Virus record (IMG/VR): IMGVR_UViG_3300042384_000211
Location: 76,800 to 140,799 of that record
From: a virus
Direction: 5' to 3' (one strand)
Length of the DNA: 64,000 bases
The notes under the pieces were generated by a model that had not been told where the DNA came from, did not search any database, and saw only the letters and a list, made by a program, of their open reading frames with translations. The first letter of the stretch is position 1, and every line of letters starts with the position of its first letter. Made by a program: the position numbers and the translations under genes. Shown piece by piece: positions 3,838 through 41,861 of this stretch.

Positions 3838-4305
3838 ATGAAACATATACATCACATCTTACCTCAATACCTAGGCGGCACTGACGATCCTAGTAACCTA
3901 ATAGAACTTACTGTAGAAGCTCACGCAGAAGCGCATCGCTTATTATACGAGCAACACGGCAATTGGCAAGACTATTGTGCGTGGCAAGCATTGTCCGGAC
4001 GTATTGGGCAAGAAGAAATATTAAGGATGAAACAAGGTATGGCTAATAAAGGTAGAAAGCGTACACCAGAACAGATTGAAAATATTAAAGCAGCCGCAAG
4101 GAAACGAGTCGAAAGACATCGCGCTGATGGTACATTAGAACGTGCAGCTATTAAGCAAAGTGCATCAATGAAGGGAAAAGTAAAATCTGAAGAACATATA
4201 GCTAATTGGGCGGCTAGTCGAAAAGGGCATGCGGTATCTGAAGAAACACGAGAAAAAATAAGAAAGACATTAGCAGAAACTAGAGCCAATAAAAAAGCTC
4301 TATAA
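3838..4305 (+). mobile_element. Free-standing HNH homing endonuclease with NUMOD3-type repeats
   Basis: HIHHILP..LGGTDDPSNLIELTVEAHAEAH; basic repeats such as SEETREKI; ATG 3838 lies 5 nt after ATAAATA. Confidence 0.85.
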
Positions 4306-39757: not shown

Positions 39758-40078
39758 TTATACAGTAAAGGACTCTCCACATCCACACCGGGCTGATTCA
39801 TTGGGATTGATGAACTCAAACCCTTCGTTGAGTCCTTTACGTTGATAATCAACTTGCATACCTTCTAGATATACTAGGTCTTTGGTAGAAACAATTACTG
39901 TTACTCCTTGCTGATTAATTTCAATGTCGCCTTCAGTAAGAATATCAGCAAACTCTAAAGTATATGCCATACCGCTACAACCCGTAGTACGAACACCTAC
40001 CCGCATGCCGATACCTTTTCTACGATTGTCTAAGGCGGATTGCATTTTTTCTGCAGCTATTTTAGTTAGTGTGATCAT
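39758..40078 (-). CDS. iscA: Fe-S cluster A-type carrier IscA
   Basis: TTGCSGMAY, NPN...CGCGESF. Confidence 0.95.
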   Translation of the reverse strand: MITLTKIAAEKMQSALDNRRKGIGMRVGVRTTGCSGMAYTLEFADILTEGDIEINQQGVTVIVSTKDLVYLEGMQVDYQRKGLNEGFEFINPNESARCGCGESFTV

Positions 40079-40085
40079 TAATTTT

Positions 40086-40736
40086 TTATTTCCCAGGGTT
40101 TAACTGCCTATAAATATTTAAAACGTGCTGTAATTTACCTGTATCATAGTTCGTAATAGACATAAAATTTGCTATTTTATCAATTAATGTTTGACTATCA
40201 TTTATACTACTAAATTTAATTTCAAGTGTACTATCTTTATGCTTTGGGAGAGAATATACCCAATATGAATATTGATGATTATTAGCTAACCAATTTTGTT
40301 CTCCTGTTGGTATAACAGTGCCAGAGCAAAATTCTTCGTAAGTTGGCCAAGATGATCCTGCCAGTTGAGTATATGTATTTTTATCAGTGAGGTCAATTTT
40401 TGTTTTTTTATTTGCCCGGTAAACCATTTCGTTAATATCGTCCGGTGTAAATGTTATATAAATTACTTTTTTGCCTGTTTCAACTAATAACTCTACATTA
40501 GTAAAATGTCCTATTATAACATCTTTATTTGGTAATTTTTTAATAATTATATCTTGGGGCAAACTCGAATTAACATGTATAAAACCGTGAGCTACCGAAG
40601 AGTGCATTGAGCCGTTTTCGTCGGGATAACTTTCACTATTTCCTAGTAAAATACTGCATAGTGCTCCTATTAAATGCCCTCCGCTTCCCGCAGGAAAGCA
40701 CACAACAATATTTTGGTTTTTCTTATAAGTATTCAT
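40086..40736 (-). CDS. Hypothetical protein, possibly P-loop/sulfotransferase-like
   Basis: CFPAGSGGHLI; AT-rich insertion between iscU and iscA. Confidence 0.55.
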   Translation of the reverse strand: MNTYKKNQNIVVCFPAGSGGHLIGALCSILLGNSESYPDENGSMHSSVAHGFIHVNSSLPQDIIIKKLPNKDVIIGHFTNVELLVETGKKVIYITFTPDDINEMVYRANKKTKIDLTDKNTYTQLAGSSWPTYEEFCSGTVIPTGEQNWLANNHQYSYWVYSLPKHKDSTLEIKFSSINDSQTLIDKIANFMSITNYDTGKLQHVLNIYRQLNPGK

Positions 40737-40753
40737 TTTACTACATTTTATTT

Positions 40754-41026
40754 TTAATTATTTTTCTTACGATAATCCTCTATAGCACTTTTAATAGCGT
40801 CTTCTGCTAGAACACTACAGTGAATCTTAACTGGTGGAAGCGCAAGTTCCTCAGCAATCTCAGAGTTTTTAATCATTTGGGCTTGGTCCAATGTGCGACC
40901 TTTTAGCCATTCAGTGACAAGACTGCTGCTGGCAATTGCACTTCCGCAACCATAAGTTTTGAATTTGGCATCTGTGATGATATTGTTTTCTACTTTTATT
41001 TGAAGTTTCATAACATCACCTGTCAT
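40754..41026 (-). CDS. iscU: IscU C-terminal part (split gene)
   Basis: MTGDVMKLQIKV..KTYGCGSAIASSS..LPPVKIHCSVLAEDAI; ATG overlaps the TGA of the N-terminal part. Confidence 0.9.
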   Translation of the reverse strand: MTGDVMKLQIKVENNIITDAKFKTYGCGSAIASSSLVTEWLKGRTLDQAQMIKNSEIAEELALPPVKIHCSVLAEDAIKSAIEDYRKKNN

Positions 41027-41139
41027 CCGCAAGCTGGGGCACCGACGATTCCGGTCCCAACTTGCGCATTCTCCTTATCTAAAGATCCTACATTTCTTGG
41101 ATTTTCATAATGGTCAAGTACCATTTTTGAATAGCTCAT
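41023..41139 (-). CDS. iscU: IscU N-terminal part (split gene), 38 aa
   Basis: Manual translation MSYSKMVLDHYENPRNVGSLDKENAQVGTGIVGAPACG-stop; AAGGA RBS. Confidence 0.9.
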   Translation of the reverse strand: MSYSKMVLDHYENPRNVGSLDKENAQVGTGIVGAPACG

Positions 41140-41767
41140 ACAACATTTCCTTTGTAATTAAACATTTTGTTCCTTTACTAGAATTTTCTTTAACAGGAAT
41201 AAAGTGTAAATTATATATATGTCCCATAACTTTAGGTGGCACATTATTGTCAAATCCCACTCTTACACTATATTTGTGATCTAAGCTATATCCTATTTTG
41301 CTTCTTTTTTCATAATTCTCTAATACTGATAAATCATTCTTCTCTGACCAATAATGAACTTTACGTCTGTATTTTTTAAATTCTGCATAGGCCAGACTGT
41401 CTGGTGGATAAATTTGTCCTTTTGCAATCCTGGTTGCTCTTGCTTTTCTTTTGCTTTCTTCGGATACAATCCTGCCTGTATTACCTTTGGATATTTTTTG
41501 CTTATGAGATTCAGACATTGTCTTTCCTTCCCAATACCCTCTGGCTAAATTGGCTAAACTATTTGGATGGTTTAAGGACACTCCAAACATAGGATTATTT
41601 TCACCTTGTTTAGCTTCACTTGCTTTTTTACGCCATGCATCTGATCTATTATTAGCTGCCCATCTGCGGGAACAAATAGGCCCGCAAAATCTGCGCCTTA
41701 ATTCTTTTTTTCCTGCTTTGGGTAAAATAAATTTATTACTACAACATTCGCAAATTTTTTCTAGCAT
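41114..41767 (-). mobile_element. Homing endonuclease (Zn finger, NUMOD3, C-terminal HNH) overlapping the iscU start
   Basis: CECC/FCGPIC, SESHKQKIS, YSLDHKYS..HIYNL..IP..EN. Confidence 0.8.
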
Positions 41768-41861
41768 ATAGGATTCTCGTATTGTTCTATTATTTAGTCC
41801 GTTACGAAATTCCATAAGTGTATTACATAGTAACACTATTTATATGGTAGTGTAAATGATT

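Follow-up and report, generated by a model that had tools for sequence, protein, structure and literature searches.

The iscU gene of an uncultured virus is interrupted, at the loop that holds its Fe-S cluster ligands, by eight extra nucleotides that contain a stop codon. The gene lies on the minus strand of a 64,000-nt stretch of the IMG/VR record IMGVR_UViG_3300042384_000211 (positions 76,800 to 140,799; termed the window), and inserts of 4-9 nt occur at the same iscU codon in at least 52 other viral contigs. From a comparison of these sequences, we conclude that the putative HNH-type nuclease gene upstream of iscU, the first 38 iscU codons, and the 8-nt insert probably form, or derive from, a homing-endonuclease cassette, which would have invaded the iscU genes of a family of large phages, and that the insert is probably skipped during translation by a stop-hop from one Gly codon to the next. 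With a little less confidence, we favor on balance the broader proposal that these loci represent the first natural family of short programmed stop-hops (4-9 nt), driven by the refolding of a dedicated 5' hairpin that has an SD-like sequence at its base, and used by at least two kinds of homing endonuclease as a general intron-free immunity, the design recurring at a second iscU site (LPP/VK) beside a Vsr-like nuclease.

The iscU insert and its recurrence

The interrupted locus comprises the following elements.

41026..41139, minus strand: iscU N part, 38 codons, starting at 41139 and ending in Ala-Cys37-Gly38
41031-41029, minus strand: Cys37 codon TGC
41028-41026, minus strand: take-off codon GGA (Gly38)
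41021..41025, minus strand: gap, presumed untranslated, made of the stop TGA (41025-41023) and the spacer CA (41022-41021)
40754..41020, minus strand: iscU C part, from the landing codon GGT (41020-41018) via Asp39 to the stop at 40756-40754
41025..41069, minus strand: mRNA hairpin 5' of the insert, with an 11-bp core stem and a 5-bp inner stem; arms at 41066-41056 and 41038-41028
41071..41076, minus strand: Shine-Dalgarno (SD)-like AAGGAG just 5' of the hairpin
41114..41815, minus strand: free-standing endonuclease gene with an N-terminal 4-Cys zinc finger, a NUMOD3 motif, and a putative HNH-type C-terminus

Relative to intact relatives, the window gene contains exactly 8 additional nt, namely TGA, CA, and a duplicated Gly codon; GGT GAT GTT ATG follows at 41020-41009 on the minus strand, and the frame then stays open until the stop at 40756-40754. 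Both pieces match the Pfam family NifU_N (PF01592, cut-off 22 bits), the N piece at profile positions 2-35 (E 8e-11, 42.6 bits) and the C piece at positions 34-124 (E 3e-36, 124.8 bits), and the two matches abut and cover the whole domain. Because both pieces match this family and abut, and because exactly 8 nt are in excess of the intact relatives, the split is confirmed. A preliminary description, made from the letters of the window, had reported that an 8-nt stop-containing insert splits iscU at its ligand loop; the sequence at 41028-41018 (minus strand) and the comparison with intact relatives agree on this point. It had also stated that the halves retain the IscU motifs, and the translations aligned with intact relatives indeed contain the three cluster-ligand Cys, Asp39, LPPVK, and His-Cys. 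Two other elements that it mentioned are present as well: an ATG at 41026-41024, which forms an ATGA overlap and is in frame with the C part, and an endonuclease open reading frame (ORF) with a NUMOD3 motif, which overlaps the iscU start by 26 nt and ends at 41114. A hop across the gap is predicted to yield a product of 125 aa.

The preliminary description had proposed a survey of phage iscU genes for short inserts at this position. A search of IMG/VR with the C piece retrieved 80 syntenic loci, 5 of which are interrupted at the same codon, and a DNA pattern scan raised the number to at least 51 interrupted iscU loci among the matches listed. A second, looser scan fixed only the Ala-Cys and the Met-Lys/Arg-Leu-Gln codons, leaving both Gly codons, the stop, and Asp-Val free; it recovered the same kinds of insert plus one new kind, and no interruptions of another design. 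Among the matches listed, we distinguished 40 unique interrupted alleles (the window's own included) and 67 unique intact ones. The insert is therefore recurrent, and the window type (GGA TGA CA GGT or GGC) is itself found in 6 other unique alleles, which together with the other interrupted contigs excludes the one-off lesion that the preliminary description had considered.

Insert lengths among the matches listed are 7 nt (28 loci), 8 nt (20), 9 nt (4), 6 nt (1), and 4 nt (1), and the 15-16 insert types present among them share one plan: a Gly codon, a stop, 0-3 nt, a second Gly codon, and then the Asp-Val-Met codons. TGA, TAG, and TAA are all used and all three frames occur, the in-frame inserts at Gly38 always using TAG; the codon after take-off is a stop in 14 of 15 types and the rare AGG in the remaining one (L283). 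The spacer bases vary freely. The base 3' of the stop is C in 10/15 types vs 8/56 (14%) long ORFs of the window, a difference whose nominal p is overstated because the insert types are related to each other. UGA-C reportedly is the weakest termination context in E. coli. The peptide preceding the take-off codon is ordinary IscU sequence, and exact Gly-to-Gly joining restores the invariant Cys-Gly-Asp loop in every allele. After such joining in silico, 39 of the 40 unique interrupted alleles contain no other stop or frameshift, the exception being L137. The AGG-containing allele is a 4-nt Gly38 variant, GGT A GGC (L283:5208-5283), in which the rare codon after take-off replaces the stop; it parallels the "hungry codon" variants reported for homologues of gene 60 of phage T4.

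Interrupted alleles fall into at least 8 clusters of the iscU tree and are interleaved with intact ones, although this tree of a short gene is weakly resolved. No interrupted iscU was found in cellular genomes among the GTDB representatives, where the insert pattern gave one chance match outside iscU, so at this search sensitivity the cassette seems to be restricted to viral contigs. A megablast search with 10 kb found no close relatives among GenBank phages, only three distant matches to intact iscU.

Flanking RNA signals and the upstream nuclease

The insert is accompanied by two elements in the mRNA. The last position in the 3' arm of the window hairpin is the first base of the take-off codon, with weaker outer pairs extending into GGA-T; its predicted stability is -26.5 kcal/mol (z -4.97), and 0 of 200 shuffled sequences were as stable. 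All 40 unique interrupted alleles fold into a strong hairpin of this kind, with a 3' arm that ends at the take-off codon. When a fixed 52-nt stretch was folded, the interrupted alleles gave -30.0 to -21.8 kcal/mol (mean -25.3) vs -24.8 to -6.5 kcal/mol (mean -14.7) for the 67 intact ones (Mann-Whitney p 4e-17). The stem also covaries: 89% of the cells in alignment A1 are paired, vs 31-41% when the partner is slid. Compensatory changes occur at three stem pairs, two of which lack any unpaired sequence: pair 18:48 is AU in 24, CG in 7, and UA in 2 sequences, and pair 21:45 shows five pair types, with no unpaired cell in either. A change between Gln and His codons goes together with a silent change in the codon for Ala36. 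Invariant G.U pairs in the stem indicate that the selected structure is formed by the sense RNA and not by the DNA. As for the SD-like element, 38/40 unique interrupted alleles vs 0/67 intact ones have AGGAG or GGAGG at a distance of 43-47 nt upstream of the Cys37 codon, and the element is kept at the nucleotide level despite a differing codon register (Lys-Glu vs Lys-Gly-Asp). One intact iscU without a nuclease, in L004 (at about 3890-4270), carries a hairpin of the cassette type (-23.8 kcal/mol); this allele may be an ancestor or a precise revertant.

The third associated element is the nuclease gene. Its ORF of 217-233 aa has its first ATG at 41815 and its stop at 41116-41114, while the start given in the preliminary description, 41767, is the Met of MLEKI. 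The 16 codons that lie between (41768-41815, minus strand, MEFRNG...) are identical in the homologue of L035, which is 72% identical overall and occupies the same slot, and for this reason the true start may be the ATG at 41815. The window protein matches Pfam NUMOD3 (E 6e-8) and belongs to phrog_5104, as does a commoner 200-aa protein located upstream of other interrupted alleles. Four N-terminal Cys and a D-H...N...N motif are invariant in an alignment of 20 members of this nuclease family (alignment A2).

The end of every upstream nuclease ORF lies no more than 35 nt from the iscU start. The preliminary description had suggested looking for a correlation between the inserts and an adjacent nuclease, and such a correlation is found: an HNH-type homologue lies directly upstream in 28/37 interrupted vs 2/65 intact loci with sufficient flank (Fisher p 4e-15), the two sets being sampled differently and not phylogenetically independent. 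In otherwise syntenic genomes, the slot between a 128-aa gene and iscU is filled, empty, occupied by a remnant, or taken by another nuclease type. Even the seven alleles of the window insert type differ in this respect: the window's nuclease is present only in the window, L094 has a 41-aa remnant, L161 and L175 have another nuclease type, and the slot is empty in L117, L128, and L177. Interrupted alleles persist after nuclease loss.

The pattern of divergence points to joint mobility of these elements. Among alleles of one insert type, synonymous differences amount to 0.05-0.31 for the N part vs 0.61-0.72 for the C part, as expected if the nuclease, the N part, the hairpin, and the insert were copied together into diverged resident genes. 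This suggests that the four constitute a mobile cassette with the insert at its 3' edge. Multi-sequence identity profiles identify the 60 nt before the insert as the most conserved stretch (0.82-1.00); around the site these profiles are blurred by nuclease presence or absence and show only the conservation of these 60 nt. The dN/dS of the N part is 0.13 across the cassette lineage. We did not use the C-part dN/dS (0.04-0.08 within insert types) as proof of selection after invasion, since this divergence may predate the cassette.

A further site in iscU carries inserts of a similar kind. L137, the allele with a second stop, has an additional 6-nt in-frame insert containing a stop between Pro and Val of LPPVK (L137:3467-3492). 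An insert at this LPP/VK site, which is absent from the window, occurs in 16 more contigs (L301-L316) and consists of a stop plus CTN or, once, CCG. The site has its own covarying 5' hairpin, which ends before the take-off Pro codon, and 9 of 17 loci possess, just after iscU, an ORF of ~243 aa that has a zinc finger at its N-terminus and a Vsr-like motif at its C-terminus. In several LPP/VK alleles no in-frame start codon follows the stop, so restart cannot explain this form. This second cassette is the design of the Gly38 insert used again.

The stop-hop and its alternatives

By analogy with T4 mobA/gene 60, placing an insert in the most conserved stretch of iscU would disrupt the target of the nuclease. 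Translation across the window insert would then proceed as follows. A ribosome with Gly38 (GGA) decoded would face the weak-context stop TGA-C in its A site, the peptidyl-tRNA-Gly would unpair, the mRNA would move forward by 8 nt, probably aided by refolding of the hairpin behind the ribosome, and the tRNA would re-pair with the next Gly codon, GGT; decoding would resume at Asp39 and yield a normal 125-aa IscU. We infer that the 5' arm is free behind a ribosome paused at take-off and that a forward movement of 7-9 nt would allow ~7 more stem pairs to form. Such a role for stem refolding agrees with a model of gene 60 in which base pairing of the mRNA as it exits the ribosome is proposed to power the forward bypass (Wills et al., bioRxiv 10.1101/2024.12.09.627546). 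As every insert length and frame must be accommodated, a frame-independent mechanism is needed, and a hop would account for the duplicated Gly codon, the weak-context stop, the freely varying spacer, and the dedicated hairpin. The preliminary description had envisaged a minimal insert that protects against the nuclease while gene function is kept, through either a hop or two chains. Recurrence, the nuclease link, and the cassette-specific RNA signals speak for the first of these ideas, in which protection from cleavage is the inferred part, and the comparative data favor the hop over two chains.

Several points weigh against this explanation. The hop mechanism is deduced by comparing sequences, and synthetic short stop-hops are inefficient in E. 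coli, at about 1%. The hairpin is located 5' of the take-off codon, unlike the take-off stem-loop of gene 60. The window codons GGA and GGT have different wobble bases and are as a rule decoded by distinct tRNA-Gly species, a mismatch seen in 4/15 types; no tRNA genes were found within the window. Restart is possible, given the Met41 ATG located 6 nt after the landing codon in every allele and the additional in-frame ATG of the window. Some of the conservation seen in the C part and in the Gly-Asp-Val codons may be older than the cassette invasion. The HNH assignment of the window nuclease, drawn from its motif and weak fold matches, is provisional: Pfam HNH is matched below threshold by 7/20 members (best E 0.0014) and not by the window protein, and the matches of its model (mean pLDDT 68) by VIA-align are weak and mostly to HNH nucleases (5h0o, Z 4.0; 4h9d, Z 3.2), while solved structures gave no match by sequence, nor by Foldseek with the same model. 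Finally, the nuclease link is not absolute, as several interrupted loci now lack a nuclease, and in L035 and L057 the nuclease lies beside an intact, hairpin-less iscU, which makes the target of the nuclease a putative one and means that this target, or the immunity, is not always the insert. Matching of tRNA classes between the two Gly codons was considered as possible support for the hop and set aside, since it is found in 11/15 types (12/16 with the TAG-CTG type on the incomplete locus L085) vs ~9/16 expected, which is not significantly above chance.

The alternative that withstands the data best, though we judge it unlikely, is a two-chain IscU: translation would terminate after Gly38 and restart at the ATG at 41026 in the window, or at Met41 in all alleles, and the 38-aa and ~87-90-aa pieces would assemble. 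Besides the in-frame ATGA overlap and the universal Met41, it gains from the Gly-Asp codons often reading as SD-like GGAG or AGGTGA, and from the hairpin, which when folded would bring the upstream AAGGAG to ~5 nt from the overlapping ATG. This AAGGAG-hairpin-ATG arrangement resembles the split ribosome-binding sites known from T4. NrdA of phage Aeh1, split by MobE, also offers a split-gene precedent. Against this, only the 8-nt GGA-TGA types have the overlapping ATG in frame; the 7-nt GGA-TGA types have it out of frame, the GGT and GGC types lack it, and in the 7-, 6-, 9-, and 4-nt types generally it is either missing or in another frame. A restart at Met41 would lose the conserved Asp39 and leave the second Gly codon of all 15-16 types unexplained, and in several types (GGC GAT after TGA-C or after TAG plus 3 nt) no SD-like sequence precedes Met41. 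A weak stop context is unexpected in a design that depends on termination, the pieces have no added tails of the kind seen in MobA- or MobE-split proteins, and the LPP/VK alleles devoid of a start codon could not work in this way.

It is improbable that the interrupted iscU is a dead gene whose insert is the scar or immunity mark of a selfish nuclease. Homing drive is able to carry costs, iscU is auxiliary, and the low divergence of the N part suggests mostly recent invasions, so that decay may not show yet; L137 even has a second in-frame stop. However, a dead gene would need neither the compensatory upkeep of the hairpin nor an SD-like element kept across codon registers, and the Gly/stop/Gly plan survives changes of stop codon and spacer length. 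Further decay is also rare: 39 of the 40 alleles are free of further lesions, interrupted alleles outlast the loss of the nuclease, and the exception, L137, has an in-frame insert instead of random decay, one that belongs to another recurrent cassette with its own hairpin.

We give still less weight to a mixture of recoding events, namely a +1 frameshift for the 7-nt inserts, a -1/+2 frameshift for the 8-nt inserts, and readthrough for the 6- and 9-nt inserts, each of which would lengthen the Cys-Gly-Asp loop by 1-3 residues. Taken singly, these events are known, TAG is the stop in all in-frame inserts, and a stop after the shift codon with an upstream SD-like element recalls the +1 site of prfB. 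Nevertheless, three mechanisms would be invoked for one conserved architecture that lacks slippery sequences; the spacers, read as +1-shift codons, would introduce variable residues (Asp, Asn, Arg, Glu) into a ligand loop that is invariant across the 67 intact alleles; and the second Gly codon would have no role. An assembly or sequencing error, conceivable for an uncultured metagenomic IMG/VR contig, is practically negligible as an explanation, because 6 further unique alleles, which come from other samples, share the insert type and at least 52 contigs carry variants with co-varying flanks.

Related systems and the genes around iscU

The self-protection idea of the preliminary description has a precedent: T4 mobA/gene 60 is a cassette of a nuclease and a bypass, the bypass insert of which prevents MobA from nicking the T4 genome (Manning & Atkins, bioRxiv 10.1101/2022.08.31.505936). 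As in that system, a free-standing nuclease gene, putatively of the HNH type here, stands beside a presumably untranslated insert in a highly conserved block of codons, the nuclease has often disappeared from beside a retained insert, and its role is also taken by other nuclease types. The iscU inserts also share with gene 60 a Gly take-off codon, an immediate stop (or the rare AGG in one variant), a Gly landing codon, and the accompanying mRNA structure and SD-like element. The differences are equally clear. The iscU gap is 1-6 nt (a predicted hop of 4-9 nt) vs 47-50 nt in gene 60; the iscU hairpin precedes and ends at the take-off codon, where the structure of gene 60 starts; and the SD-like element lies 5' of the hairpin, that of gene 60 being inside the gap. 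In addition, the interrupted gene encodes IscU and not a topoisomerase subunit, and it has the nuclease ORF upstream instead of being split by it. MobA elements are characterized by a topoisomerase large-subunit gene, a cassette of ~50 nt, and added tails; here we find iscU, a 5-nt gap, and no tails, so that the iscU cassette is analogous to the MobA element but not a member, the likeness being functional and architectural.

Other comparisons concern hops and split genes described elsewhere. In synthetic E. coli stop-hops, matched codons flank a stop (Weiss et al. 1987, as reviewed by Atkins et al. 2016, PMC5009743), and the 6-nt iscU type GGT TAG GGC has exactly that form. Unlike those constructs, which are engineered and inefficient, the iscU inserts are natural, diversified, and provided with dedicated flanking signals. 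That review expects shorter natural counterparts of bypassing but states that a natural in-frame stop-hop was not known at the time. Full-text literature searches found no paper linking IscU and translational bypassing. With the MobE-split NrdA of Aeh1 and the MobA-split topoisomerase, iscU shares a nuclease-linked interruption of a conserved gene, with function presumably kept; unlike them, it has no nuclease ORF between its halves and no tails, and its restart codon is not conserved across types. The many mitochondrial byps of Magnusiomyces capitatus are likewise short untranslated inserts bypassed between matching or near-matching codons, with wobble differences tolerated. They differ in being GC-rich mobile elements of 27-55 nt that occupy numerous positions in the genes of a eukaryotic organelle and have no nuclease gene linked to them.

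Work on efficient bypassing has long been based on one example from bacterial viruses, T4 gene 60 with its homologues, and on yeast mitochondrial byps. The iscU family constitutes a natural series of minimal variants, with gaps of 1-6 nt, three stops, and three frames, accompanied by an SD-like element and a simple hairpin that covaries. With this series it could become possible to test directly what drives the mRNA forward and which rules govern re-pairing in the P site. More generally, recoding may be a much commoner way for homing endonucleases to protect their targets than has been assumed, in which case gene callers will mis-annotate recoded genes as split genes or pseudogenes.

The window belongs to an uncultured viral contig of 140.8 kb from IMG/VR, ~40% complete according to CheckV, and it contains phage replication, nucleotide-metabolism, and tail genes. 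The gene order around iscU on the minus strand is a 227-aa virion-like gene, the 128-aa gene, the endonuclease ORF, iscU, a 216-aa ORF, iscA, a 131-aa ORF, and a PD-(D/E)XK nuclease gene, which includes the following neighbor with a Pfam match.

39758..40078, minus strand: iscA-like gene (Fe-S_biosyn, Pfam PF01521, E 1e-18)

The iscA-like gene is syntenic with iscU across ~75 loci and is the functional partner of iscU in a conserved phage module. The 216-aa ORF that separates the two genes in the window (40086-40736, minus strand) has no Pfam or PHROG match and no homologue detected by tblastn in 80 related loci, in most of which iscA directly follows iscU; it may be another inserted gene. In some relatives, a 272-aa ORF with a CxxxCxxC radical-SAM-like motif, absent from the window, lies between the 128-aa gene and the nuclease (L026:2391-3209 and L035:2352-3170), and this putative radical-SAM-like protein would fit a phage Fe-S module composed of iscU, iscA, and an Fe-S enzyme.

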